This document shows positions 1,586 to 38,049 of a DNA stretch of 38,049 nucleotides, in pieces (position 1 is the first letter of the stretch; every line of letters starts with the position of its first letter). The stretch lies in the NCBI RefSeq assembly GCF_004010195.1, contig NC_057718.1, positions 40,523,273 through 40,561,321 on the forward strand, given 5' to 3'. The notes under the pieces were generated by a model that saw nothing but the letters and a program-made list of their open reading frames with translations, made no database searches and was not told the DNA's origin. This DNA is from Chiloscyllium plagiosum (taxonomy: Eukaryota). Position numbers and translations under genes: made by a program.

Positions 1586-2150
1586 CAGAGAACATCTCCG
1601 GGACACCCGCATCAACCAACTCCACTGCCCCATGGCCAAACACTTCAGCTCCCCCTCCCACTCCACCAAGGACATGCAGGATATGGGCCTCCTCTATTGA
1701 CAAACCCTAACCACCCAACGCCTGGAGGAAGAACGCCTTATCTTCTGCCTTAGGACCCTCCAACCACATGAGATGAATGTGGATTTCACCAGTTTCCTCA
1801 TTTCCCCTCCCCCACCTTATCCCAAATCCAACCTTGCAACTCAGCACCACCCTCATGACCTGTCCACCTGTCCATCTTCCTTCCCACCGATCTGGTCCAA
1901 CCTCCCCTCCAACCTATTACCATTACTCCCACCTTTATCCACCTATCGCACCCTCAGCTACCTTCCCCCCAGCCCCACTCCATCCCATTTATCTCTCCAA
2001 CCCCTTGGCTTACAAGCCTCATTCCTGACGTAGGGCTTTTGCCCGAAACGTCGATTCTCCTGCTCCTCAGATGCTGCTGACTTGCTGTGTTTTCCCAGCA
2101 CCACACTCTCGACTGTGACTTCCAGCATCTGCAGTCCTCATTTTCTCCTC
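1586..2150 (+). mobile_element. Penelope-like element 3' fragment (GIY-YIG C-terminus, C-rich UTR, pLTR family A)
   Basis: Translates REHLRDTRINQLHCPMAKHFSSPSHSTKDMQDMGLLY*QTLTTQRLEEERLIFCLRTLQPHEMNVDF, a PLE GIY-YIG C-terminal pattern. Diverged 15-bp TSD cctcagtaatcacca (1573-1587) / cctcattaaccacca (2147-2161). Confidence 0.85.
2021..2056 (+). ncRNA. Degenerate minimal hammerhead ribozyme (PLE family A)
   Basis: attc-CTGACGt-a-GGGC-tttt-GCCC-GAAAC-GTC-gatt; conserved A9 of CUGANGA is T at 2031. Confidence 0.55.
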
Positions 2151-3289
2151 ATTAACCACCATTGTTGAGACAACATCAATTACTGGGTGTCTCAGAAGAG
2201 ATTAGCTAAGGAGGTGCTGTCAGTTGGGTCTGCAGGCCGAACTGAGAGGCAATGCAGAAGATGGCTATGCTTGTTTCAGAAACCTATTGCAGACCCATGT
2301 AACCTTCTGATAATAGGCTGCCTGTTGCTGGGACAAGGGTTGAATCGCAGCACTTCAAGAAGATGGGTCACCATCATCTTCTCACGAGTAATAAGAGTAG
2401 ATGATACACACCACAAATGTTCACACACCATGAAAGATTAAGAAGAAATCTAAAATATAAGAAAAGCTCTTACACTTTTTCTTCATGTTGTTTGTTAGCC
2501 ATTTTGGCACGTCTGTTCTTTATCATATTCTTACTACATTATCTATGAACCTCATTTCTTTCATTGTTGCCATAATTTTGCCACATGCCTCAAGTTTTTC
2601 GCCTTGTTATTGATCAGCAGACCTCTGTTTGCTTCATTAGAATACAGTGATGTTGTATCCAATCCATCTTGCACTCAAAGATTTCCCACTGTCAGACCTT
2701 GTCCTTCCTGTTCAGTATCAATATATTTGACTCTTTGTGATTCTTTTCTCCTTGTGTGTAGAATTTAACTGTGTTATAAAGTTGAATTTTACCAGATATC
2801 AGGCCAGATTTGGCTGGTTTCTTGGAGGACTCTCTCCATGAGCTGAAACAGGCTGTGTGCTGCTGTCTTCCCAATCTTGCCTCATTACCTATGCATCATG
2901 TCCCTGTGGCATACGGCTCATTGGTCTCCCCCTCACCACAGACAAAAGTACTGGTCACTGCCAGGACCTCGTGTGTTTCCTGGCACCAGTGCCATCTTTA
3001 AAGTACTGCCATGCACCCAGTCAAGTGCTGCCATTGTTCCTTCAATTGCCTGGACCTGATGAGCAGAGGGAGATTGACTCCCTGCTTTGCTACTGGGCAC
3101 TTAGAAATGTCAATGATTGATGGAGGCCAGGAAAAGCAAGCAGCAAGCTGTGGCTTTCACCCTGGGGAATTGTCACCATCGAGTTTTTATGCAGAGGATG
3201 GGAGAAAGGGAAACTGCAAATCAATGAAGTGAGCTGATGTAAAAATGAGAATGTTAATGTACACTAGTGCATGCAAACACACCTCCTGC

Positions 3290-9865: not shown

Positions 9866-10127
9866 ATTAGATTAGATTAGATTAGATTAGATTAGATTAC
9901 AGTGTTGAAACAGGCCCTTCGGCCCAACAAGTCCACACCGACCCGCCGAAGCGAAACCCACCCATACCCCTACATTTACCCCTTACCTAACACTACGGGC
10001 AATTTAGTATGGCCAATTCACCTGACCCTGCACATCTTTTTGGATGGTGGGAGGAAACCGGAGCACCCGGAGGAAACCCACGCAGACACGGGGAGAACGT
10101 GCAAACTCCACACAGTCAGTCGCCTGA
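9866..10127 (-). mobile_element. HE1 SINE (V-SINE), 5'-truncated
   Basis: (ATTAG)n tail 9866-9899, then near-identical reverse complement of the HE1 at 36803-37122; lacks the tRNA head. Confidence 0.92.
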
Positions 10128-20739: not shown

Positions 20740-21550
20740 ATTTCTGACAGCCATGCAGGCCAAGCCCCCCACTGGTCTTCTGTGTCACCTCCTCTGCAGA
20801 TATCATTTAATAGAAGACTTAATGGGCATGTCCAATTCTCAGTCACGCTTTGCTGTTCTCTGCTCTCTTTTTCCAGAAGAAGAGAAAGAAAAAGACCTGA
20901 GTGAGAGTACTGTGTGTTCACTGAAGTGATAGTGAACACCTGTAATAAGTGACTATGGAAGAGGGGCATGACATTGCATAAGGATGAGTGTCAGTTTTGG
21001 ACAGATGAGTGGGGGTATGAGGAAATGTGGAGACAGATGGATTCCCCTACATGATAAGTCAGTGTGAGGAGTGATGCACTGGTGTAATTCTGAGAAGGCA
21101 GAGTGAAGGATTGAGTTGCATGTACCTCAGGATGTAGTGTGGTACTCACCTTTAATGCTCTGTTTCTGACACAATACTACTTCAGCATTGAATCCAAGAG
21201 TGCGGCACCAAATGTAACCAACTGGCCAATCTCCAAATAGTGTTCTTTGAATTACCTGCTGACTACTTCCCATTGAGAGACAAAAAAAACTGCAGATACT
21301 GGAATCCAAAGCAGACAAGCAGGATCCTGGAAAAACACAGCAAGCCAGGCATTATAAGGAGTAGCTTCTGATGATGCCTGACTTGCTGTATCCTGATGAT
21401 GCCTGGCTTACTGTATCCTTCCAGCCTCCTGCTTGGCTTCTCCCCATTAACAAGGAAGAGGCTCCCTCCAGGCTCTTTGTGCCAGACCTGAACAGCAAGT
21501 TAGAGAACTTCACTAAAATGAAACACAGTCATTGACTTTCTACCTTCTTC
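20740..21550 (-). mobile_element. Probable decayed PIF/Harbinger Myb/SANT-like gene (two exons)
   Basis: Minus strand: VFHFSE...LFLVNG...LEIGQLV...SWIQC* before a donor AAG|GTGAGT near 21144-21152; then pyrimidine tract and KRAENSKA*LRIG...AEEV. Heavily mutated. Confidence 0.4.
21275..21439 (-). mobile_element. Degraded fold-back PLE pLTR insertion (family E)
   Basis: Arms 21313-21352 / 21399-21438, 38-nt unpaired tail, CTGATGA in a 25-bp tandem duplication, putative TSD cttcccatt/ctccccatt. Confidence 0.6.
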
Positions 21551-22195
21551 TCTTGTCACCTCCAAATAATTATATGTTTTGAATGGCCTGTTAAACAGTG
21601 GCATTGAAATCACACCATGTACATCCTCATTAAGCCTGCTGCTGATAATTGATTGAGACACCTCATGTATTGATGCAGTGGCCCTGTTAAAAATTCGCTG
21701 AAGAACATGCGTCATGAACTTTGGTGTTTCCCACACAAGGCTGAGGGCATGTCTGCCAGCATGTCCGCACATTACACTCCAGGCCAGCATTCCTTCTCTA
21801 TTTCAGAAGCTGATCCAACTTCTGTGGCCTTACTGCATTTTCTGTTCCTTCTTTCAATCCTTTCATATCATTCATGAGGTCATATCCTTCTACATCATAA
21901 AATGGAACAGTTTGTGGAGACATTCATGCCCATTTCAAGAAAGATAATTTCAACAGAAAGCAGCTCACGGAGCTCATTGTGCTGAACTGAATGACCTCAG
22001 AAATCATATTCAAAGCTAATGAAATAGATTCTGTAACACTGACACTAATTATGCCAAGCTTTTACTTATGCTTCGTTGTATTTTATATATTTAACAAATT
22101 TTATTCTTCTTGTAGGTTTTCAAAAGAAAAGGTCATATTTGCAAATCTCACTGCCATTGCTCATTAATTATATTCAGCTGACCAGCTTTTTTATT

Positions 22196-22757
22196 GGCAT
22201 TTATATAAATGATTTGGATGTGAACATAGGAGGTATAGTTGGTAAGTTTTGCAGGTGACACCAAAATTACTGGTGCAGTGGATAGTGAAGAAGGTTATCT
22301 AAGATTACAAAGAGGTCTTGATAAGTTGGGCCAATGAGCTGAGGAGTGGAAGATGGAGTCTAATTTAGATAAATGTGAGGTATTGCATTTTAGAAAGGCA
22401 AACCAGGGTAGGACTTATACACTTAATGGTAGGTCTTGAGGAGTGTTGCTGAACAAAGGGACCTTGAGATGCAAGTCCAATGTTCCTTGAAAGTGGAGCT
22501 GCAGGTAAACTAGATGGTGAAGAAGGCATTTGGTATGCTTGCCTTTATTGTTCAGTGCATTAAGTATAGGAATTGGGATGTCATGTCGTAGCTGTATGGG
22601 GTATTGGTTATGCCACTATTGGAATATTGTGATCATTTCTACAATTTCTGCTAATAGAAACGATGTTGTTAAACTTGAAACAGTTCAGAAGAGACTTGCA
22701 AGGATGTTGCCAGGATTGTAGGGTTTGAGTTATAGGGAGAGGCTGAATAGAGTCCTG
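22196..22757 (+). mobile_element. CR1 LINE RT C-terminal fragment
   Basis: IYINDLDVNIGGIVGKF...; DVVKLETVQKRLARMLPGL. Confidence 0.9.
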
Positions 22758-23170
22758 GAGTCATAGAGATGTACAGCACAGAAACAGATCTTTCGGTCCA
22801 ACTCGTCCATGCCGACCAGATATCCTAAATTAATCTAGTCCCATTTGCCAGCACTTGGCCCATATCCTTCTAAACCCTCCCTATTCATATACTCATCTAA
22901 ATACCTTTTAAATGTTGTATTTGTACCAGCCTCCACCACCTCCTCTGACAACTCATTCCATACATGCATCACTCTCTTCATGAAAATGTTGTCCATTAGG
23001 TCCCTTTAAAATATCTCCCCTCTCACTCTAAATTTATGCTGTCTAATTTTGGACTTCCCTGCCCTGGGAAAAGAACTTGGCTATTCACCCTATCCATGTC
23101 TGTTATGATTTTATAAACTTCTATAAGGTCACCATTCAGTCACCAGCATTCCAAGAAAATAGCTATAGCC
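22758..23170 (-). mobile_element. CR1/HER1 3' end, 5'-truncated
   Basis: gagtcatagagatgtacagcacagaaacag is the reverse complement of the CR1 tail. Confidence 0.9.
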
Positions 23171-23690
23171 TTTTGGAGTGCAATTCCATAGTTCCTTGAA
23201 AGTAGAGTCATGGTAGATAGGATAGTGAAGAAGGCATTTGGTATGCTTTCCTTTATTGCACAGAGCATTGGGTATAGGCTTTGGGAGGTCATTATGCGGC
23301 TGAACAGGACATTGGTTAGGCCACTTTTGGAATATTGCATGCCATTCTAGTCTCTCTCCTATCGGAAGGATGTTGTGAGACTTCAAAACATTCAGAAAAG
23401 ATTTACAAGGATGTTGCCAGTGTTGGAGGATTTAAGCTACAGGGAGAGGTTGAATAGGCAGGGGCTGTTTTCCCTGGAGTGTCAGAGGTGTTGGTCAATT
23501 CAGAGGAATTGGTGGACGCTGGTACAATACAACATTTAAAAGGCATCTGAATGGATACACGAATAGGTTTAGAAGATTATGGGCCAAATGCTGGCAAATG
23601 GAACTAGATTAATTTAGGATATCTGGGTGGCATTACCGAGTTGGACTGAATAATCTGTTTCAGTGCTAAACAATTCTATGACCCTATGAA
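23171..23690 (+). mobile_element. CR1/HER1 3' fragment with internal deletion
   Basis: Near match to 13370-13680, a jump near 23490, then tail ttctatgaccctatga. Confidence 0.9.
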
Positions 23691-23754
23691 CATATATCTA
23701 AAGTTTTCAGAAATTCTGAACACCATCTGATTGTGCTAAAGTAAGTTGAGATAA

Positions 23755-24198
23755 CAGGATGATGCCAGGTGTGGAAGGTTGGAGTTATAAAGAAAGATTG
23801 GATAGGCTGGGACTTTTTTCATCGGAGCATAGAAAGTTCAGAGGTGACATTATTGAAGTTTATGAAGTAATGAGGGGTATAGATAGAGTTAAAGGCAAAT
23901 GTTTTTTCTAGATTGGGGGATTTCAAGACTAGGAGGCAAGTTTTTAAGGTGAGAAGAGAGAGACATTTAGAAAAAACATGAGGGGCAATTTTTTTACTCA
24001 GAAAGTGGTTCATATGTGAAATGAACTTCCTGAGGAAGTGGTGGATGTGGGTACAATTACAACATTTAAGAAGCATTTGATTGATTACATGAGCAGGAAC
24101 AGGCAGGTGGGACTAGTTTAGTTTGGGATTATGTTCGGTATGGACTGGTTGAACTGAAAGATCTGTTTCCATGCTGGATGGCTCTGTGACTCTATAAC
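23755..24198 (+). mobile_element. CR1 3' fragment, different subfamily
   Basis: RMMPGVEGWSYKERLDRLGLF...FTQKVVHM*NELPEEVV; tail ctctgtgactctataact. Confidence 0.9.
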
Positions 24199-24710
24199 TA
24201 CTTCTTTACTGTTTTATTTGTTTCATTAGCTTGGTGAACTGTTCAGCTTTTAATAATGCTGTGATAAAAACACTCTGAACCAGAGGATCTGCTTATAAAT
24301 ATCTTGCTGTGACATTGCACCTCATTTCCAGTTCATATTTTAAAATGAAATGAGCACAGCCATTTCCAGTTAATTGGTCTGTTCCTTTGTGTCAGATTTT
24401 GCAACATGACAAGGGAACTCGCATGCAATTATTTCATGCTTTTGGTTTGTGGGGATTATTGCATATAAATACAACTAGTACAAGTTTTACAATTAATCAA
24501 CCTGAAATAACAGGCAAAACTGATAGCCTGGAAATTCCTGCAGTGGTGTAAACCATAAGGTACACCAAAGTTTTATGGCTCTTGCTATGCTGGTGATGCT
24601 GGTGCCAACTTAGATTTGAGTTTCTGGTGAACTGAACCAGACTTAAGTCTAAATGTAAGACTCAATTTAAAAAGAAATACAATAATAAAATATTACTGTA
24701 ACAATCCATG

Positions 24711-24823
24711 GAATCATAGAATCCTTACAATGTGCTATTTGGCCAATTGAATCTACACTGACCTCTGAAGACCATCCCACCCTATCCCCGTAACCCTGCA
24801 CTTTTTTTTACCATGTCTAATTC
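24711..24823 (-). mobile_element. Older HE1-like SINE 3' fragment
   Basis: gaatcatagaatccttaca...ccctatccccgtaaccctgcac...ccatgtctaattca. Confidence 0.5.
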
Positions 24824-24994
24824 AAAGAGTCTCCATCCAAGTAAAGCCCAAGAAATGGTGCCGCAAGCTATGGCCCTCCAGAAGTAGCTTCTGTTGGGAC
24901 AACAGCTCCTGAGGGTGAGTTACCATCCCTAATAGGATAAATGTCCTGGTGACACCTTCCTAAATGGTCAGCATCAAGAAGCTGCCTCCCTAGG

Positions 24995-26025
24995 TCCCAT
25001 GTGGTTGCAGTCATACCTAGCACATAGGAAGATGGAAGTGTTCTTGGAGGTCAGTTATCTCAACTCCAGGACTCATCTCTAGGAGTTTATCAGCGGAGTA
25101 TCCTAGATAGAACTATTTTCGCTTGTTGCATGAATGACCTTCGCTCCATCTTAAGGTCAGAGTGGGATGCCGATGATGATTGCACAATGTTCAGGCCAAT
25201 TTATGACCACTCAGATACTGAAGCATTCTTTGTGCAAATGCGACAAGACCTGGATAATGTTCATATTTGGGATCACAATTGACAAGTAACATTCACACCA
25301 CACAAATGTCAGGGAATGACCAAAATAGAACCTAACTATTGCTACTTGACATTCAATGACACTACCATTGCTGAATCCCCTTATCCCCTTGGAGGGAGAT
25401 GGAGGATGCCATTTCCCAGAGACTTAACTGGACAAGCCATTAAATATAGAGGTTAGGAATCCTGCAGTGGATAACTTACCACTTAACTTCCCAAAGCCTA
25501 TCCACAATCTACAAGATGTAAGTCAAGAGTGTGGTGGAATATTCCCCACTTGCCTGGATGAGTGATCCTCTGACAACATTCAAGAAGCTTGACACAAGCT
25601 GGGAGGAAGCAGACCACTTAATTGGCACCGCATCCACAAACATTCACACCCTCCATTACTGATGCTCAATAGTAGAAGCATGTACCATCAGAATTTCACC
25701 AAGGTTCAGAAATTCACCAAGGCTCCTTCGGTAGGACCTTCCAAACTGTGACCATTTTCAGCTAGAATGACCAGGGGAGCAGGTACATGGAAACACTACC
25801 ATCTACAAGTTCCCCTCATCACTCACCATCTTGACTTTGAAATATAGCGCTGTTCCTTCACTGCTGTTGGGTCAAAGTCCTGGAACTCCCTCCGTAACAA
25901 CATTGTGGATCGATCTGACCCATTGTACTGCAGCAGTTCAACACCACCCTCTCAAGAACAGCTAGGGATGGACAGTAATTGTTGGCCCAGCCAGAAACAT
26001 CCACATCGTCCGAATAGATACAAAA
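24995..26025 (+). mobile_element. L2/Crack-like LINE RT plus 3' end, degraded
   Basis: WLQSYLAHRKM..., decayed GVPQGS and ADD motifs, LSTIYKM*VKSVVEYSPLAWM; 3' end as at 11590-11730. Confidence 0.8.
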
Positions 26026-27600
26026 ATTCATCTCCTACTTTTGGCTCTGGTGGAGGAGTGTCAGCCTTCACATTAAATATGGCCTTGAGTATTGAAACAG
26101 CCCACAAACAAACTGTTTGAATTTCTTTCCTGTCAGGTATGACACTCAAGAGAACAGAACCTTGCAAACTGCAACTAATTTTCTCACAATCCCGACCAAG
26201 TATGTTTTTCCATTCCGAATTGCCCAGTTTTGGGATTCTATTTCCTTTGAAGCAAAATGCCATCAACATAGCCTTTTCATATCCTTCCAGTGCTATTTTT
26301 TAATCAGCTTGAAATGTACCCCCTAGATGATGTTATATTTTGGTGTTGCTTTCAATGGTATTTATCTTGTATGTTCCTAACATCTGTTTTGACTTGTGCG
26401 CTTTTCTAAACTAGCTTTGATTACTAAATGGGAAAACTTAAAGAGACTTTAAAACAGAAGTAAATACAAATCAAGATTTGAGGGGGATATAAATAGAGTA
26501 CACGCCTTATTTAGAAGGATACTGTTACTAATATGATAACTCTGTGCTGTTTAATGAATGTACAGTGTGATATTTACACTATGTATGCCTTGATGATGTA
26601 TGGTGAAATATTAACCCTCTCCTGCCCATACGTTTGTGGCATCTTATTTTATGCTTCTTTCTCCTCCACTGGTCTCCTTCAGTGTTTTGCCCCTACCCTG
26701 CTCTTCTAAAACTTTTGAGTCTTTGCTCAGGTATTGGTCTGTTTGGGTAATTCCCAAAATCTTCCACCTAAATATCATTACTTGTATGAGTAAGTATGTA
26801 CTGGTAGGTCTATCCCACTGTTAAGTCCAACCCTGACCTCAACTGTCAGCCTGACATCCAATAGATATCACTGAATACTGAGCTTATTCTTCTCACCCTG
26901 AGGTACTGAAGCCAATAGTGATCTTCCACCATTTTGATTAGCAGGGACTGTGACAGGAACTGCAACCTTCCTGGCCTTCATGGATTGGCCAGTCGCTGAA
27001 TTATTGGGAATTACTTTGTACCTGGATCAGAGGAAGTTATTTTCCCTGTTGACCACTCCTGGTATCTTGTGATATTTGTGCCACTTCTACCACTATGTGA
27101 TTGTGGGTAAGGGATGTTTGACATAGTCCTCCTTTATCATTGCATTGTTTTGGGTCAATCTAATCATTAATGACAGAGGAAACATCACCTTCGAGTATCT
27201 GTGGAAGAGACATTGATCCTCAGTAACAAGCTGACTTGTTTCATGATTGCAATATGTATATTTGGTCAGGCATAACCTTAAGAAACTGGTACAGATATAA
27301 CTGCTTCCTCTGAAAGCTGGAGTATAACACCTTGTCTCCACCCACAGGCTGCGTGTGACCTCAGTAGATTGGGTGAAGCAAAGGTAACATGAACATTAAC
27401 TCCTTCAGAGCAATTATATTATATAACACAATGAACTAAATTTATTTGAGTGGATAAATGATAAATAAGTGGCTAAAAAAGTAAGTTAAGAGCAACAACA
27501 CATATATTACAGTGTCTCTTGGGGTTTGTCAACACTAATCTGACTTTATTTGACTATTTGATTTATTTAAAAGCAAGGACAAAAATACTTTTAACAAGAT

Positions 27601-27693
27601 AAACAAACTGCATTTGTTGGAGACCTGAAACGAAAACAGAAATTGCTGGAGAAACTCAACAGGTCTGACAGTAGTTCTGATGAAGAGTCACCA
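27601..27693. mobile_element. Fold-back PLE pLTR (family D), left part with hammerhead 5' half
   Basis: Arm 27635-27671 is the reverse complement of 28518-28554; CTGATGA at 27677-27683 then a-gagtc-acca-ga. Confidence 0.7.
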
Positions 27694-28490
27694 GATTTGA
27701 TTTGATTTGATTTAGACTTTATTGTCACGTGTACTGAAGTACAAAAGCACAGGAGCACGGTGAAAAGCTTTTAAAGTCACAATATGTGGCGCCATTTGAG
27801 ATACAAGTACCCAGGTACAAAATTTAAGAACAAGGTAGAAGAAATAAGGAACAAAGTTAAAAGTCAAACGTTACAGTCGTATAGAGTAAAAAGAAGTTAA
27901 AAATGAAACATTATTGTCCTTCTTAGTATTAAGTTGTAAGATAACAAAATAAAGTTCAAACATTGCCATTTTTCTTAAGTGCTTCGCCATGTTGGGACCT
28001 AGGTTCCTACAAGAGCTCGATCTCCTCTGTTTTGGCATGCTTTCCCCATGCTGGCTTGATCTCCCTGCTCTCATCATAAATACAGATGTCAGGGAAACCT
28101 CCATCGCTGCATTGGGCTCACTCCTGAGAACCCAGACTACCAAAGCCCCGATCCAGACTCTCAGCTGCTGCCACACTCTGGACAACCAAAACCCCGATCC
28201 AGGAGCCATCCATTTCGGGCCTCAGCCTTGCCTTTGGTCTGTGCGTTGAACATCAGAAACTCACTGAGATTCCCTGATTAGACCCCCAGTTACTGCCTCG
28301 CACTGAACATCTAGCCGACTGCCAAATTCAATGAGCCTGATACCGCTGCTGCCACTGCCTCTCTCCAGAAAGTAAATTTGCAGGGAAAAAAACTAAAAAA
28401 AAACTTAAACTAATAAAAAGAGAAAAGAAGAAATAAGAAAAGGAAGAAGAAGAGCAAATAGAATGGATAAGCCTCCTGCACCGCCATCTT
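27694..28490 (-). mobile_element. ~800-bp non-autonomous retroposon with Rex1-type 3' tail
   Basis: Minus strand starts AAGATGGCGG and ends tcagtacacgtgacaataaa...(tcaaa)n, shared with 33520-33552. Confidence 0.7.
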
Positions 28491-28554
28491 GTTAACTCTG
28501 TTTTCTCCTCACAGATGCTGCCAGACCTGATGAGTTTTTCCAGCAACTTCTGTT
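28491..28554 (+). mobile_element. Fold-back PLE pLTR (family D), right part
   Basis: gttaactctg...gatgctgccagacctgatgagtttttccagca, related to the family A pLTR gatgctgcctgacctgctg...ttccagca. Confidence 0.7.
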
Positions 28555-30184
28555 ACTCAAGGCATTAAATTAAATTGGCTTTTTCATTACTCATATGATC
28601 AAACATGTTCAATGAAATTACTGTAGGTGAAATTTGACCAACTGAAAGTTTGTATGGAAGTGTACAGTTAAATGTAATTATTTGCACAAGGTGTTTGTTC
28701 ATTGTTCTGCTCCCACCTTTAACACCATCAGCAGCCATGATTTAATGTTTTGCTAATTGTGAATAATCTGGCTAGCTAGTAGAGAGTAGTCTTCCGTTTT
28801 CTGCAGTCCCTCCCTCAACAAGGGATGTAACCCTCTCTGATTAAATGAACTTGGTGACAACAAACATTGTCCAATGTAGTCCTGCCAGTGAACAGAATTA
28901 CAGTGCTTTGCTCATGCCTCACACAGACACTGGACATTTCAGAACTACTTGCTGCTGGTGTTTTGTGATGACTGCAGTACTTTATAGCGCTAAATTTAAG
29001 TTGTGTCATTATGAAGATTAAAATAAAATAGGACCATAAAAGTTAACTGTCTGTTAAAAAAATGCTATTTTCCTGTCTTTGCACACTGTAATGTCATGCC
29101 AAGGTATGTTTTAAAACAAGCCCATTTTAAATAAAACCAGTAAGTCTTTTGAAGCAGCAATATTTTTCATCAAAACAGATGCTTGTTTTGAAAGCATTAC
29201 ACTTTACTGTAGCCAACACATACTTGAAACATTAAAAACAATGATGGTGATGATGGACATAGCCACACAGCTGCAAATGAGGTCATTCACCAGTTACATA
29301 CAGTGGAAGTGGTAGTTGTGCAGGCAATGTCAACCAAGTTAAAATTCCTGGTTGGAAATCTGAAGCTGAAAACTGAATTTACAAAAGGTTTATTACGCTG
29401 TAACTCTTAGGAACTGAACTGTCTTTTCTCCACTTACCAACAATAATCACTTTTTCAGTCCTGAATGGAAACAGGAAATGCATTCATTGCCTGTAGGTTT
29501 TGCAACGTTTATAATTGTTTCTAGGAACACAACCAATGAAGCTGGTTATTGTTGCTTGAGAAGATCTGAGACATTATTGAACTTTCTGTTGAAATTTGTT
29601 TTGTTCTCACATTTTTAATGTAATTATGCTTCATCTTGTCCAGATGTTGGCAGCATGTCAGAGATCACTATTTGTATATGCTGAGTGATTTCACAAAGAG
29701 ATCTCATCCTTCATGGATCATCTAACATCTATAGAGCTGCATATCATTGCCAAATTCATCAAACAATTACCCAACCATTTTCAGATAACAAACTATTGTG
29801 TGGCATAAACATTTGCAAAGTTTTCCAAAACTTTGGAAACAACTCCCAATTAGCCTTTAGAAGTACTCAGTAAAGTTTTGTAAAAGCTGCCTTAAGGACT
29901 GCACAGTCTCACAATGACTGTTTGTGATGTTACTGTACACAAACTCAGTGCATTCATAAGATTATATCTGCCTTAGCATCTCAGTTAAAACAATGAACAG
30001 AGGAATGTAGTGAAACCTTCTTGACCATTTGGCATTCAAAATAGAACATTATTATTTCATGGCTCAGAAATAATGTTAACTTTGAAAAAAATGAATTCAG
30101 TTACTTTCCTGCCATTACTTCATGATCTTTGATTTCCTCACTGGTTAATAATCAGTCTATCTCAGCCTTGGATATACCTAATGA

Positions 30185-30275
30185 GCTGAAATGTGTTGCT
30201 GGAACAGCGCAGCAGGTCAGGCAGCATCCAGGGAACAGGAGAATCGACGTTTTGGGCATAAGCCCTTCTTCAGGA
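30185..30275 (-). mobile_element. 91-bp PLE pLTR insertion (family A) with hammerhead core
   Basis: Perfect 11-bp TSD atacctaatga (30174-30184, 30276-30286). Minus strand CTGAAGA-a-GGGC-ttat-GCCC-aAAAC-GTC (G12 changed to A). Confidence 0.9.
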
Positions 30276-30588
30276 ATACCTAATGACCCAACCTTGATCA
30301 CTCTCTGCGGTGAAGAATTGACTGACCCTGAGAGAAAAAATTCCTCCTCAGCTTTGTCTGAAATGGGCAACCCCTCACTCTGAGTTTATGCCGCCAGGTC
30401 CTACACTCTCCCCAAGGGCAAATAGTCGCTCCGCATACACCCTATCAAGCTGCCTAAGAATTTTATATGTTTCAATTATGGCTCCTCGCATCCTTCTAAA
30501 ATCCAATAGTACAAATCCAACCTACTCAACCTCACCTCATGAGAAAAATCCCTCCATATTCAGAATCAACACAGTAAATGTTTTCTGG

Positions 30589-30647
30589 ACTGACTCCAAA
30601 TCAACTGACTCCAAATCAACTGACTCCAAATCAACTGACTCCAAATC
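30589..30647. repeat. 15-bp minisatellite x3.9
   Basis: actgactccaaatca repeated perfectly inside the CR1. Confidence 0.95.
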
Positions 30648-31132
30648 CTTTCTTAGATAAGTGGACCAAAACTGTTCACCATAATGCAGATGTGGTTTGA
30701 TTAGTTGTGGCCAAGGCCTCCCTTTTTTCATCCTCCATTCCTCAGAAATGAAGGACAACAATCCATTTGTCTTCTCTATTACCCACTGAACTTGCATACT
30801 AGCTTTTTGTGGTTCTTTCTTGAGGACAAGCAGATCCCTCTATTCTGCAAGCATCTTTACCCCCTTCAAAAAAAAATTTAGCACCTCTATTCTGCCTGCC
30901 ATTTTCCCATGTTACATTCCATCCACTGAATTTTTACTCACTCACTTAATCAGTCTGTAAACCCCTGCAGACTTTTCTGTCATCCTCACCATGTGCCTGC
31001 ACATCTACTTTTATGCCATCTGCAAACTTGGCTAGAATACTTCACTTTCAATATCCAAGTCATTAATATATACTTTAAATAATTGTGGGCACTCTAGCAT
31101 TCTACTAGTTTCAGGTTGACACCCAGAAAATG

Positions 31133-31657
31133 TTCCTAGGAGCGACAATCACTAACAATCTGTCCTGGAGCACCCACATTGATGTAGTGGTCAAGATGGC
31201 ACAAAAACATCTCTTCTTTCTCAGATGGCTAAGGGAATTCAGCACATCCATTAATTTTTATTGATTCACCATGGAAAGCATTCTATCTCAATGCATCATG
31301 GCCTGGTATGGCAACTGCTCTACCCAGGACAGTAAGAAACTACAGAGAGTTGTGAACATAGCCCAGTCCATCAAGCAAGGAGCCTTCCATCCATTTCCTT
31401 CATCTACATTTCTCACTGCCTCAGAAAGGCAGCCAACATCATCAAAGACCCCTCCCACACTAATTAAAATCTCTTCCAACCTCTTCCACCAGGCAGAAGA
31501 TACAAAAGCTTAAACACATGTACCAACAGGTTCAAGAAAAGCTTCTTCCCCGCTGTTTTAGACTACTGAATGGACCTGTCAAATTTCAAATCTAATGTTG
31601 ATTTTGTTTTTTGTGCACCTGCTTTGCAGCTTTAAATTTGTATACCTTGCTCTGTTC
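31133..31657 (+). mobile_element. Rex1/Babar-like LINE, RT C-terminus and 3' UTR
   Basis: FLGATITNNLSWSTHIDVVVKMAQKHLFFLRWLREF and MESILSQCIMAWYGNCSTQDSKKLQRVV. Confidence 0.85.
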
Positions 31658-32514
31658 AAGATTCTGGGTAATCCAAGATGGAGAAGAGGAAACATTTCTT
31701 GTTGTAACAGCTGCTCCTTTATTGAGGTATTGAGGTGAGCCTGACGTCAGTGGTGGGCAAGTTGTTGGAGGAAATCCTGAGGGGCAGGATGTACATGTAC
31801 GTGGAAAGGCAAGGACTGATTAGGGATAGTCAACATGGCTTTGTGCATGGGAAATCATGTCTCACAAACTTGATTGAGTTTTTTGAAGAAGTAACAAAGA
31901 GGATTGATGAGGGCAGAGCAGTAGATATGACCTATATGGACTTCAGTAAGCCGTTTGACAAGGTTCCCCATGGGTGACTGGTTAGCAAGGTTAGCTCTCA
32001 CGGAATACAGAGAGAACTAGCCATTTGGATACAGAACTGGCTCAAAGGTAGAAGACAGAGGGTGGTGGTGGAGGGTTGTTTTTCAGACTGGAAGCCTGTG
32101 ACCAGTGGAGTGCCACAAGGATCGGTGCTGGGTCCACTACTTTTTGTCATTTACAGAAATGATTTGGATTTGAGCATAAGAGGTACAGTTAGTAAGTTTG
32201 CAGATGACACCAAAATTGGAGGTGTAGTGGACAGCGAAGAAGGTTACCTCAGATTACAACAGGATCTGGACCAGGTGGGCCAGTGGGCTGAGAAGGGGCA
32301 GATGGAGTTTAATTCAGATAAATGCGAGTTGCTGCATTTTGAGAAAGCAAATCTTAGCAGGACTTTTACACTTAATGGTAAGGTTCTAGGAAGTGTTGCT
32401 GAACAAAGAGACCTTGAAGTGCAGGTTCATAGCTTTTTGCAAGGTTTGAGAAGGTTTGTGACTCAGGTTGAGGTTTAGGGTATAGGTTTGCTCACTGAGC
32501 TGTAGGTTTGATAT

Positions 32515-32554
32515 CCAGACATTTCATTACCTGGCTAGGTAACATCATCAGTGG
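32515..32554 (-). ncRNA. Minimal hammerhead ribozyme, mirror copy with one stem III change
   Basis: Same as the + copy but GAAAT-GTC instead of GAAAC-GTC. Confidence 0.7.
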
Positions 32555-32664
32555 CGACCTCCAAGTGAAGCGAAGCTATTGTCTCCTGCTTTCTATTTAT
32601 ATGTTTACATATTTACATGTAAATAGAAAGCAGGAGACAACAGCTTCGCTTCACTTGGAGGTCG

Positions 32665-32704
32665 CCACTGATGATGTTACCTAGCCAGGTAATGAAACGT
32701 CTGG
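32665..32704 (+). ncRNA. Minimal type I hammerhead ribozyme, intact core
   Basis: CCA-CTGATGA-t-GTTACCT-agcc-AGGTAAT-GAAAC-GTC-TGG: stem I CCA/TGG, 7-bp stem II, palindromic ACGT stem III, predicted cleavage after C32701. Confidence 0.85.
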
Positions 32705-33443
32705 ATATCAAACCTACAGCTCAGCGAGCAAACCTACACCCTAAAGGTTCATAGCTCCTTGAAAGTGGAGTCACAGGTAGATAGGATAGTGAAGAAGGCA
32801 TTTGGTATGCTTTCTTTTATTGGTCAGAGTATTGAGTACAGGAGATGGGAGGTCATATTGCAGCTGTACAGGACATTGGTTAGGTCAATGTTGGGATATT
32901 GCGTGCAATTCTGGTCTCCTTCCTGTCGGAAAGATGTTGTGAAACTTGAAAGGGTTCAGAAAAGATTTATATGGATGTTGACAGGATTGGAGGATTTGAA
33001 CTATGCGGAGAGGCTCAACAGGCTGGGGCTGTTTTCCCTGGAGTGTCGGAGGCTGAGGGGTGACCTTATAGAGGTTTATAAAATTATGAGGGGCACGAAT
33101 AGGGTAAATAGGCAAAGTCTTATCCCTGAGGTGGGGAGTCCAGAACTAGGGGGCATAGGTTTAGGATGAGAGGGGAAAGATATAAAAGAGACCTGAGGGG
33201 CAACATTTTCACGCAGAGGGTGGTACGTGCATGGAATGAGCTGCTAGATGAAGTGGTGGAGGCTGATACATTTAATTGCAACATTTAAGAGACATTTGGA
33301 TGGGTATATGAATAGGAAGGGTTGGAGGGATATGGGCTGGGTGCTGGCAGGTGGGACTAGATCAGGTTGGCATATCTGGTTGGCATGGATGGGTTGGACC
33401 GAAGGGTCTGTTTCAATGCTGTACATCTCTATAACTCTATTAC

Positions 33444-33552
33444 TCTCTAATCCTCCGATGATCTTTGTATATTGTGATCTGCCTGTACTGCAGGCAAAAC
33501 TCAATTTTTCAGTGTGCCTCAGTACACGTGACACTAATAAATCAAATCAAAT
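33444..33552 (+). mobile_element. Rex1/Babar-like LINE 3' tail
   Basis: gatctgcctgtactg...ctcagtacacgtgacactaataaatcaaatcaaat; continuation of 31133-31657. Confidence 0.75.
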
Positions 33553-34017
33553 GGGCCCTTACCTATCTCTCCATCTTGCGTGATGGACTGGCTATGTTCA
33601 CAACTCTCTGTAGATTCCTATGGTCCTGAGTAGAGCAGTTGCTGCCAATCCTCTCTCCATGCTAATGTATTACCATCAACATCACGGCCTCTTAACTTAT
33701 TAAGTACCCTTATGTGGGGCACTTTATCAAATGCTTTTTGGAACCCCAAAATATGCATTTAACGGTCCCACTTTATCTATCCTGTTTGTTATCTCAAGAA
33801 AGGACTGCCATGAATTATCAACCATGATTTCCCCATCATGAAGCCATGCTGACTCTGTTTGATGATCATGTATTTCTGAATTCTCTGCTGGTATGGTCTT
33901 TCTAACAGCCTTTAACTTTTTCCCATTGACAGATGTTAAGCTAACTAGCCTACCATTGGCTATTATTTTGTTTCTCTCATTTTTTGAATAAGGGTATTAC
34001 TTTGGCATTTTCTAATC

Positions 34018-34231
34018 CCGTGTCTGCGTGGGTGCCTCCGGGTGCTCCGGTTTCCTCCCACAGTCTAAAGACATGCAGGTCAGGTGAATTGACCATGCTA
34101 AATTGCTCGTAGTGTTAGGTGGGAAATGGGTTTGGGTGGTTACTCTTCGGAGGGTCGGTGTGGACTTGTTGGGCCGAAGGGCCTGTTTTCACACTGTAGG
34201 GAATCTAATCTAATCTAATCTAATCTAATCC
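34018..34231 (+). mobile_element. HE1 SINE, 5'-truncated variant
   Basis: V-domain, HER1-like 3' end, (TCTAA)n tail; flanked by tctaatcc (34011-34018, 34224-34231). Confidence 0.92.
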
Positions 34232-34784
34232 AATCTTCTGGGATTTTCCAGAATTTAAGGATACTTAGACAATTGCTATGAATGCATCCACTATCTCACT
34301 AGCAACTTCCCTTGGAATTCTAGGACACAATCCATCCGGTCCAGGAGACCTTTTGGTCTTTAGTCACATTTGTTTCCCGGATACTACTTGTCTGTTGATA
34401 GTTATTGTGTTTATTTGCTCCACCACTTTAGCTCCTTGACTTGTAGAGTTGTTAGAATGCTATTAGTGCTGTCAATGGTATATGAGTTGGATTTTTTCCA
34501 ACTCATATACCATTTTCTGGTTTCTCATTATTATTTACTAACTGGCCTGTATTCTCTTTGGCCTCTCATTTCCTTTTCGTATAATTAAAGAAGCTCTATC
34601 TGTTCATTTCAAATACATTTGCTAGTCTGCCCTGATTGTACGTTTTCACATGTTTTATTGTTTTTTGATCATCTTAAAACTATTTTAAATATCTGGTGTA
34701 CCATTAATCTTTACTATATTGTAAGCTTTTACTTTCAATTTGATGCTATCTTTAACTTTCTTCATTAGCTATGATTGGTGTATT

Positions 34785-34964
34785 GAGGAGAAAGTGAGGT
34801 CTGCAGATGCTGGAGATCACAGCTGAAAATGTGTTGCTGGAAAAGCGCAGCAGGTCAGGCAGCATCCAGGGAACAGGAGAATCGACGTTTCGGGCATAAG
34901 CCCTTCCTGAAGAAGGGCTTATGCCCGAAACATCGATTCTCCTGTTCCCTGGATGCTGCCTGAC
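34785..34964 (-). mobile_element. 180-bp fold-back PLE pLTR insertion (family A)
   Basis: 14-bp TSD atgattggtgtatt (34771-34784, 34965-34978); 53-bp arms 34854-34906 / 34912-34964 with 1 mismatch. Confidence 0.93.
34904..34937 (+). ncRNA. Minimal hammerhead ribozyme core (family A)
   Basis: ttc-CTGAAGA-a-GGGC-ttat-GCCC-GAAAC-ATC-ga; core boxes intact, ACGT palindrome changed to ACAT. Confidence 0.7.
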
Positions 34965-35961
34965 ATGATTGGTGTATTCCCTTCCTAGAGTCCTTCTTCC
35001 TCAATGGGAAATATCTTTGCTTTGATTCATGAAATATTTTCTTAAACATTTTCATTGTTCTTCAACCATCTTTTACATTGACTCCTTTCCTAGTCCATTC
35101 CAGCTCTGACCTCATCACAATGTAATTACTCTTATTTAAGTTCAGCACAAATGTTTCTCATCCAAGTTTCTCACTCTCAAATTGAATGCTAAATTCTATC
35201 ATGTTATGATCACTGTTCCCTAGAGGGTTCTTTAACTCTGAGATCATTTTTTACAACTACCTGTTTACACGTTATCAATTCCAAAATTGACTAATTCCTG
35301 GTTGGATCCACAATACATTTTACGAGGGAAGTGTCCCAAATCCACTCAATGAGTTCTTCCTCATGGCAACTTTGCAGATTGGAAAAATCAAAATGGCATG
35401 AAAATTAAAGTGACCCATGATTATGCCACATCACAGAACTTTTAATGCAACTGAAAATCCACTATCAGTTGTGTTTTATACTCTGCTTTATTTGGCATTT
35501 AATTAATTCTTGCAGAATCAGTCCAACTTTTGTTTTTAGCTTCTGAGGTTTTACGTCCAAATCTTTTCCTTTTCCAGCATGTTTAACTCCAGAGTTGCCT
35601 TTCACATTGTAATTTTTCCTGTGGGTGTTTCCCTATACCTAGATCTACATGTGTCTTCCAAACACATTTTAAGTCCTAACAAAATTGTTATTTCTCATCC
35701 ATTTGTAAACTCCCACCTGCATCCCTGCAGGATGAACAATAATGTTGCTGTCTATTGCTGTTCTCCTTCTCTCAGATGCTGGCAGAATAACTGTGTGAAT
35801 TTTCAGGGATATCTTTGATATCATTCCTCTTTCAAAGTCCATTTCCATGACAATGTGAATCACATTCTTTCCAGGTAGGACTGTTGTTTGGTTACCCTTG
35901 AGACACCAACACTCTTTTATCATGGGAAGTGACTTGATACTTGAGAGTGTTACTATTTACA

Positions 35962-36065
35962 GTTAAAAATCACACAACACCAGGTTATAGTCCAAACCTG
36001 TTGGGCTGGTGTTGTGTGATTTTTAACTTTGTCCACCCCAGTCCAACACTAGCACCTCCAAATCA
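35962..36065 (+). mobile_element. 104-bp fold-back PLE pLTR insertion (family C)
   Basis: 8-bp TSD tatttaca (35954-35961, 36066-36073); arms 35961-35983 / 36006-36028; 37-nt tail; homologous to 37697-37795. Confidence 0.8.
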
Positions 36066-36325
36066 TATTTACAACACAACAATATCAACACTTCTCTAGG
36101 ACTTCTGATATTTATGGTCTATCCACTGTTAGCACTTCATTCTCTCCAAGTACCTTCTTCCAAGTGAAGCGATCTGGGTTCTCTTCAGTCTCTAATAAGC
36201 AAACCACTCAGGCTGGCTGTCAGGCAGGTGACAGAACAGGTCACATTAACCTCTCCATAGTATTTACAATTAATGACACGCTCTCAAAACATATCGATCT
36301 TATAAATAATTGTAGCATTACTACT

Positions 36326-36581
36326 TAGAATCATAGAGTTGTTACAGCATGGAAACAGACCCTTTAGTCCAACTCATCTATGCCAATCAGATGTCCTAAA
36401 TTAATCCAGTCCCATTTACCAGCATTTGGCCCAAATCACTCTAAACCTTTCCTAATCATGTACCCACCCAGATGCCTTTTAATTGTAATTTTATCAGCCT
36501 CCACCACTTCCTCTGGCAGCTCATTCTACACACACACATACCACTCTCTGCATGAAAAAAAATGCCCCTTAGGTCCCTTTT
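36326..36581 (-). mobile_element. CR1/HER1 3' end, left part of a split element
   Basis: tagaatcatagag...cagcatggaaacagaccc tail; breaks at aggtccctttt. Confidence 0.9.
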
Positions 36582-36588
36582 ATTGTTC

Positions 36589-36783
36589 TTCATTGTTCTT
36601 CAACCATCTTTTACATTGACTCCTTTCCTAGTCCATTCCAGCTCTGACCTCATCACAATGTAATTACTCTTATTTAAGTTCAGCACAAATGTTTCTCATC
36701 CAAGTTTCTCACTCTCAAATTGAATGCTAAATTCTATCATGTTATGATCACTGTTCCCTAGAGGGTTCTTTAACTCTGAGATC
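36589..36783 (+). repeat. 195-bp identical copy of 35051-35245
   Basis: Base-by-base comparison shows no mismatch. Confidence 0.95.
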
Positions 36784-36784
36784 T

Positions 36785-37122
36785 GGGCGGCACGGTGGCA
36801 ATGGGCGGCACGGTGGCACAGTGGTTAGCACTGCTGCCTCGCAGCGCCAGAGACCCGGGTTCAATTCCCGCCTCAGGCGACTGACTGTGTGGAGTTTGCA
36901 CGTTCTCCCCGTGTCTGCGTGGGTTTCCTCCGGGTGCTCCGGTTTCCTCCCACAGTCCAAAGATGTGCAGGTCAGGTGAATTGGCCATGCTAAATTGCCC
37001 GTAGTGTTAGGTAAGGGGTAAATGTAGGGGTATGGGTGGGTTACGCTTCGGCGGGTCGGTGTGGACTTGTTGGGCCGAAGGGCCTGTTTCCACACTGTAA
37101 AGTAATCTAATCTAATAATCTA
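36785..37122 (+). mobile_element. Full-length HE1 SINE (tRNA-derived V-SINE) with duplicated 5' 16-mer
   Basis: gggcggcacggtggca at 36785 and 36803; A box TGGCACAGTGG 36814-36824; B box GGTTCAATTCC 36858-36868; V-domain; HER1-like 3' end; TCTAA tail; CpGs retained. Confidence 0.96.
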
Positions 37123-37696: not shown

Positions 37697-37795
37697 TGGT
37701 TTGGAGGTGCTGGTGTTGAACTGGGGTGTACAAAATTAAAAATTGCACAACACCAGGTTATAGTCCAACAGGTTTATTTAGAAGCATTAGCTTCC
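37697..37795 (-). mobile_element. PLE pLTR fragment (family C)
   Basis: Reverse complement matches 35995-36065; ends at attagcttcc. Confidence 0.75.
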
Positions 37796-38049
37796 GACCT
37801 TTACACCGCTGAGGCTAAACGCCAGCTCGCGGACACCTCCTCCTACTGTCCCCTTGACCATGACCTCACCTCCCACCACCAAACCATCATCTCCCAGACC
37901 ATCCATAACCTCATCACCTCAGGGGATCTCCCATCCACCGCCTCCAACCTCATAGTCCCACAACCCCGCACCGCCCGTTTCTACCTCCTGCCCAAAATCC
38001 ACAAACCTGACTGCCCCGGCCGACCCATTGTCTCAGCCTGCTCCTGCCC
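37796..38049 (+). mobile_element. Penelope-like reverse transcriptase ORF fragment, open to window end
   Basis: DLYTAEAKRQLADTSSYCPLDHD...PQPRTARFYLLPKIHKPDCPGRPIVSACSC; PKIHK...RPIVS is the PLE RT signature; no stops. Confidence 0.93.

Follow-up and report, generated by a model that had tools for sequence, protein, structure and literature searches.

How did a set of short hairpins in the genome of the shark Chiloscyllium plagiosum come to have arms of unequal length? The question is raised by a stretch of 38,049 nt (assembly GCF_004010195.1, contig NC_057718.1, forward-strand positions 40,523,273 to 40,561,321), which is called the window below. A preliminary description of this DNA had noted that in four families of fold-back elements without open reading frames (ORFs) one arm extends about 34–39 nt past the other. 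It had ascribed this to two start points of reverse transcription (RT) used on opposite strands of one staggered cut, and had considered either dead-end insertions or a self-propagating non-autonomous class. The arms are the 3' ends of longer Penelope-like elements (PLEs) of several families, each consisting of a minimal hammerhead ribozyme and a tail.

Unequal hairpins in the window and in the genome

The tail is defined as the stretch of the long arm beyond the end of the inverted short arm. Copies of five families (A–E) in the window are as follows.

21275..21439, no strand: family B hairpin; the left side holds the long arm and its tail, the right side the short arm; rearranged and truncated centre; no intact hammerhead
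27601..27698, no strand: family C hairpin, left part; long arm, tail of about 34–38 nt, then the first half of the sense-arm hammerhead
27699..28489, no strand: later insertion of about 790 bp, which divides the family C hairpin within its hammerhead
28490..28555, + strand: family C hairpin, right part; remainder of the short sense arm
30185..30277, − strand: family A solo copy, extending between the inner start site and the modal 5' stop (4 nt upstream of the hammerhead core)
32435..32745, no strand: family E hairpin; 131-nt arms, hammerhead in both, 39-nt tail
34785..34964, no strand: family A hairpin with an overhang of 69 nt, centred on a microhomology junction that recurs
35962..36065, no strand: family D hairpin; short arm on the left, long arm on the right; both arms stop before the hammerhead

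All coordinates first given for the tails were confirmed. The short arm of the B hairpin ends at 21435 when read strictly and at 21441 when read loosely, and the resulting tail of 35–41 nt includes the 38 nt originally reported. The E arms (32474–32604 and 32615–32745) are 96% identical and leave a tail at 32435–32473, and the D tail (36029–36065) is 37 nt. The A solo copy starts at 30185, equivalent to 34822 in the A hairpin, that is 37 nt inside the tail end, and the 69-nt overhang of the hairpin is exceptional, both as described before. Target-site duplications (TSDs) flank the B hairpin (9 bp with one mismatch, 21266–21274 / 21440–21448), the E hairpin (12 bp, 32423–32434 / 32745–32756), the D hairpin (8 bp, 35954–35961 / 36066–36073), the A hairpin (14 bp, 34771–34784 / 34965–34978) and the A solo copy (11 bp, 30174–30184 / 30276–30286). 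The claim that the hairpins are TSD-flanked does not extend to the C copy (inverted match 27635–27698 versus 28494–28554, 80%), which has no clear TSD, so its tail value is the least certain of the window set.

Family B has 29 related loci. The centre of its hairpin (21368–21419) carries arm sequence in a 25-nt tandem duplication; the CTGATGA found there looks like a hammerhead core but is not one. The insertion at 27699–28489 is low-copy with a short-repeat end, and the E hairpin lies within a LINE-like RT frame that goes on at both sides.

To place these copies in the genome (3.56 Gb), 139 evenly spaced 10-kb regions were sampled, 1.343 Mb without N. They contained 464 arms of the five families. 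Among 137 neighbouring arms within 300 bp, 111 were tail-out (head-to-head), 10 tail-in and 16 in the same direction. A TSD was found for 60 of the 100 testable long-arm hairpins and for only 7 of the 989 controls with swapped flanks; those of family A are mostly 14–16 bp. In 55 of the 60 TSD-defined hairpins the tail could be measured, with a median of 36 nt and a length of 31–40 nt in 36 of them. The hairpin inserts are real and very common, and the one-sided tail is real and beyond chance. If the sample is representative, the genome holds about 1.2 million arms and about 0.3 million hairpins.

The parent elements are best seen in families E and A. Copies of family E run upstream into GIY-YIG and RT coding sequence, with Pfam matches to RVT_1 above the cut-off (E = 4.9e-8) and to GIY-YIG (E = 2.9e-3). 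Family A copies at three loci (L039, L031 and L183) also run upstream into RT/GIY-YIG coding sequence, the GIY-YIG match (E = 1.4e-4) being 0.1 bit below the cut-off; the RT pieces of family A gave no Pfam match. In both families RT is followed by GIY-YIG upstream of the pseudo-long terminal repeat (pLTR), in sense orientation. Together with the inverted 5'-truncated copy, the one-sided tail of 30–40 bp, the TSD and a minimal hammerhead predicted in the terminal repeat, this is the organisation of endonuclease-containing (EN+) PLEs. Some points weigh against this assignment: the GIY-YIG scores of A and E are just below the Pfam cut-off, B and D show only endonuclease-like C-terminal motifs upstream, and parent coding sequence for family C was not recovered among the sampled loci. 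Parents were seen as fragments in loci of 3–10 kb, many of them interrupted by assembly gaps. To judge from familiar motifs, family E is presumably Poseidon-like and families A–D Neptune-like. At four loci (L019, L022, L028 and L070) family A copies are inserted into or joined to other Penelope-like bodies.

The hammerhead is predicted by sequence. A minimal-hammerhead descriptor is satisfied in six of the seven family references and also, with weak or altered positions, in the B and C consensus; an Rfam scan gave no hammerhead match, and its only microRNA matches were sub-threshold and came from the hairpin shape. In the window, the descriptor is passed only by the E hairpin (both arms) and the A hairpin (one arm, with one core change). 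The A solo copy carries a GAAA>AAAA change, and the B, C and D copies have no intact hammerhead, though their families do. As these are three of the four copies on which the tail rule was based, calling the hairpins ribozyme-associated was loose.

Two start sites and the probable joining of two arms

Much of the layout has been published. The Pen2a_Av element has an inverted pLTR, a 31-bp tail, a TSD and TATA/initiator (Inr) motifs, and self-priming was proposed for it (PMC3846280). The layout of inverted pLTR, one-sided tail and TSD has been generalised (PMC8557442), and inverted pLTRs with short 3' extensions are standard for PLEs (PMC8969392). For PAc, a Poseidon element of Anolis carolinensis, it was shown in vitro that the 30–40-bp tail is the stretch between two RT starts and that both strands are cut and extended (PMC11167929). 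The mechanism first suggested for the window is therefore mostly known, and the idea of an under-described system is not borne out. Because both RT starts of PAc are internal to the RNA (PMC11167929), the long end does not have to coincide with the end of the RNA, as had been supposed.

The shark copies show how the two starts are combined. Among 100 pairs of families A, D and E, 57 were long+short, one long+long and four short+short, while in 38 one end lay elsewhere. This excess of long+short pairs indicates that the two starts are used as a pair and are not drawn independently; the Penelope origin, the two RT starts and the use of both strands of one staggered cut are consistent with it. 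Most pairs were also joined in their own way: 42 distinct junctions were found in 45 young pairs, and the recurring ones lie on 2–4-nt microhomologies beside the modal stop. The hairpins are very probably very short head-to-head insertions of PLE 3' ends, each likely built anew by twin priming from starts about 36 nt apart. This reading draws on the layout, the TSDs, the two classes of 3' end, the long/short pairing, the diversity of junctions and the continuity of A and E with RT/GIY-YIG.

In such a process, the endonuclease would make a staggered cut; the stagger is suggested by the TSDs, and cutting of both strands has been shown for PAc. Each cut 3' end would then prime RT with sense RNA as template, the outer start being used by one and the inner start by the other; these sites have been shown for PAc in vitro, and their pairing is shown by the shark copies. 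Either a full transcript could serve as template, through its 5' pLTR copy, or a short transcript of any copy with the promoter still in place. Both cDNAs would run towards the 5' end of the RNA, often to a likely cap. These two separately made cDNAs, copied from the sense RNA of one source, would then be joined at their 3' ends via short microhomologies, probably with the loss of 0–15 nt. If only one arm were kept, a solo long or solo short copy would result. Stubs of this origin would be akin to strong-stop products, with lengths of about 130 and 95 nt. In 13 young A hairpins the junction and the TSD overlap, by about 2 nt on average, which hints weakly at pairing of the primer, whereas PAc primes without homology (PMC11167929).

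Two observations weigh against twin priming as the only route. Tails exceed 45 nt in 9 of the 55 TSD-defined hairpins, so the A copy with its 69-nt overhang is an ordinary exception. Certain junctions also occur very often (about 20 and 14 of 100 matches listed), so a minority of hairpins may be clonal. Matches to the whole A hairpin are biased to the junction and TSD-like bases of the query, and were left out of all frequencies.

Hairpins could also arise when one cDNA, begun at the tail end, folds back on a short self-complementary stretch near the hammerhead, copies itself and ends about 36 nt short at the target joint, as in the self-priming proposed together with palindromic junctions in PMC3846280. 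Two common junctions can be drawn as such fold-backs, and the two arms of one hairpin share variants at 14 of 84 variant sites, compared with 106 of 4792 between hairpins. The shared variants point to one source per event, though gene conversion could contribute. Other results disagree with fold-back. Of 45 young pairs, 25 have a short arm that extends further 5' than its long partner, the A hairpin of the window among them (the reverse holds in 16 and 4 are equal; a few rows are wide-gap pairs). As a fold-back copy cannot hold sequence absent from its template, both arms were mostly made from RNA. Solo copies of the short type are common (50 of 140 solo arms), the one at 30185 having its own TSD, and the inner end agrees with the second RT start seen in vitro (PMC11167929). 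Fold-back is therefore unlikely as the general route and could account for a minority of hairpins. Near-perfect palindromic centres, in which both arms reach the 5' stop with a 4-nt overlap (e.g. C1 18547204–18547259), were seen in about 7 pairs among 100 matches listed.

The same variants, the recurrence of a few junctions at very many loci and the many possible templates offered by an estimated 0.3 million hairpins would suit a self-propagating non-autonomous class, in which a transcribed hairpin is copied whole by a Penelope enzyme in trans. This is very unlikely in view of the 42 distinct junctions, and the recurring ones on microhomologies occur in both polarities (2:2 in one comparison and 4:2 in another) or on several haplotypes; the junction of the window A hairpin was found at 8 distinct loci with at least four haplotypes among the query-biased matches. 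Copies whose tail lies on the opposite arm cannot derive from a one-tailed parent. In addition, 48 young hairpins showed no clear A-to-G (ADAR) editing excess, although counts were small, and no single fixed internal structure is shared by descent as in clonal SINE- or MITE-like elements (short interspersed and miniature inverted-repeat elements). Of the two fates considered at first, dead-end insertion is thus favoured over self-propagation. These results argue for twin priming as the main route.

The 5' stop upstream of the hammerhead

In family A, arm ends are about 30-fold enriched immediately 5' of the hammerhead. In 80 young A arms, the stop rate was 5.9% per nt in the interval that begins 10 nt inside the first base of the hammerhead core and ends 5 nt upstream of it. 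It was 2.9% per nt at +6 to +12 and 0.13–0.20% in the remaining bins; 16 of the 80 continued for at least 60 nt. Older A and D arms showed a similar rise at the stop over a higher background. Because solo copies show the same stop, it is not an artefact of the palindrome. The limit base is an A, 4 nt upstream of the hammerhead core, in a context resembling the initiator consensus. In D and in four A subfamilies a TATA-like motif is found 30–32 nt upstream, with a diverging spacer between.

An extra G is frequent at this position. In genome-wide exact counts with A at the stop, the preceding base was G in 3955 cases and A or T in 2601, a ratio of 1.5 where 0.35 is expected from base composition, i.e. 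about 4-fold higher. In all 10 G rows among 100 matches listed, the sequence upstream was varied and non-native. One base further in, the ratio of G to T was 13:34 (hand count of matches listed). For older A subfamilies, G was counted 20 times and A 11 times by hand among 100 matches listed, T being native to one subfamily. Splicing was ruled out as the origin of the extra G by the varied upstream contexts and the absence of an AG acceptor. Taken together, the stop probably reflects many cDNAs running off the capped 5' end of an RNA that starts at the initiator-like site 4 nt upstream of the core, mainly in family A, although considerable doubt attaches to this step.

The doubt has several sources. 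In our own sample, 8 young and 8 older A arms ended at the stop; 4 of the young ones and none of the older ones carried the extra G. Family D has scattered ends and subfamily variants with no single sharp site, and family E mostly reads through the hammerhead, the window copy included, whose arms reach 52 nt upstream of the core. Raw poly(A) single-cell RNA reads of one run showed no start peak, 107 reads having loose ends at the site, and the drop in read depth from 303 to 69 mirrors the contigs of a run that is likely DNA. In the family E references a TATA-like box lies about 50 nt upstream of the hammerhead core, from which a start about 15–20 nt upstream is expected; one sampled E arm ends at +22. 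Apparent E stops at +1/+2 belong to other E subfamilies and were dropped.

Twin priming could also operate with another kind of 5' boundary, set by RT stalling at a folded or protein-bound hammerhead or by 5' exonuclease trimming of the RNA. In favour are the coincidence of the boundary with the 5' strand of helix I, the assistance that the hammerhead receives from protein in vitro (PMC11167929), the lack of an RNA start in the reads, and a G excess that is uneven among subfamilies. However, RT first encounters the fold at its 3' edge; a stall would be expected there, and the young A stop rate at that edge is 0.18% per nt; neither stalling nor trimming explains the G excess or the conserved motif spacing. 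We regard this alternative as possible but rather doubtful. It is extremely unlikely that the templates start at the hammerhead cleavage site, as would cleaved or circular RNA of the retrozyme type. Although 18 of 139 older A ends lie 26–40 nt downstream of the core start, this rate of about 1% per nt is hardly above neighbouring bins, only 2 of 87 young A ends fall there, and most arms retain the core upstream of the cleavage site. Head-to-tail joints of a unit of about 130 nt occur in a few contigs, but the scarcity of same-direction neighbours (16 of 137) speaks against this start too. In a few contigs of run X15 and at L035:5363–5494, the 5' stop is joined straight to the tail end, with steps of 132 and 127 nt; such whole-stub units are a possible route to retrozyme-like arrays.

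For run-off at a cap there is a familiar parallel: retroviral minus-strand strong-stop DNA also runs off a capped 5' end, but it is tRNA-primed and transferred, not integrated. We tentatively suggest that PLEs make comparable products, and consider the chance slightly below even: a dimeric enzyme might use both nicks at once, each with its own fixed start, taking the 5' pLTR of a capped RNA as template; the two cDNAs would run off the cap just upstream of the hammerhead and be joined head to head.

Neighbouring copies and published relatives

Three further Penelope-like features lie in the window.

37697..37796, − strand: family D arm with tail, head to head with the adjoining RT fragment
37796..38049, + strand: Penelope-like RT fragment (P0001); to its right a gap of 2040 N, then a sense family A 3' end with tail
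1586..2154, + strand: family A 3' end, longer and older; comprises upstream body, tail and a degenerate hammerhead

The RT fragment, a short piece, gave no significant Pfam match. With the D arm and the young A end beyond the gap (L031:2041–2228), it may form a two-family chimera or mark an A element inserted into D; a TSD shared by the D arm and that A end was looked for and not found. Repeats known from the sampled regions cover about 37% of the window. About 220 nt seem to be duplicated 1.55 kb apart (36541–36782 and 35020–35241), and a SINE-like copy next to this duplication (36784–37116) is 97% identical to an inverted copy at 9881–10127.

Compared with EN+ PLE insertions (PMC3846280, PMC8557442), the shark copies are alike in the head-to-head 5'-truncated copy, the 30–40-bp one-sided tail, the TSD, the pLTR hammerhead and the TATA/Inr-like motifs. 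They differ in that their arms are usually ORF-less stubs of 60–135 nt in very large copy number, and in that A TSDs are mostly 14–16 bp instead of 8–10 bp; the shark data also favour twin priming over the self-priming of PMC3846280. PAc shares the two RT starts that bound the tail, the cutting and extension of both strands, and uncleaved hammerhead RNA as template, whereas the available text of PMC11167929 contains no mention of an extra G, of a fixed 5' stop or of two stubs joined head to head. The minimal hammerheads of metazoan PLEs (PMC4209133) have the same core, short helix I and palindromic 4-nt helix III; opposite-strand motif pairs 100–700 bp apart were noted there as truncated PLEs, and arm ends and junctions were not analysed in the portion available. 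Animal non-LTR retrozymes (bioRxiv 10.64898/2026.07.22.740005; PMC7229834) are likewise non-coding, hammerhead-bearing and derived from PLE pLTRs, but they are head-to-tail tandem units with circular RNA, while the shark copies are head-to-head singles, the 111 head-to-head pairs far outnumbering the 16 head-to-tail ones. The Drosophila arrangement differs, with its start 46 bp plus a 75-bp intron upstream (PMC2377424).

L1 twin priming is alike in that the second target strand primes on RNA; its inverted parts are non-overlapping and its second start is not fixed. A literature search, with subscription journals, Repbase and Dfam outside it, found no report of ORF-less PLE hairpins in sharks or in such abundance, nor of a fixed 5' stop or cap-derived extra G at pLTR ends. 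The hairpins are new families of a known kind, formed by a mechanism published in its main parts, with the fixed 5' stop as one testable refinement.

On the formation of inverted pLTRs and one-sided tails in PLEs, the shark copies add to the in vitro work a large set of natural insertions by which twin priming and fold-back can be told apart; they show that the two starts are used as a coordinated pair, and they predict that a capped RNA start lies at one particular base. In annotation, they account for hundreds of thousands of hairpins which might be mistaken for MITEs or microRNA precursors. If PLEs do make strong-stop-like products, the roughly 0.3 million shark hairpins would be a record of how the normal cycle that yields inverted pLTRs begins, and would map the start site, the RT starts and the cut stagger of each family to the base.

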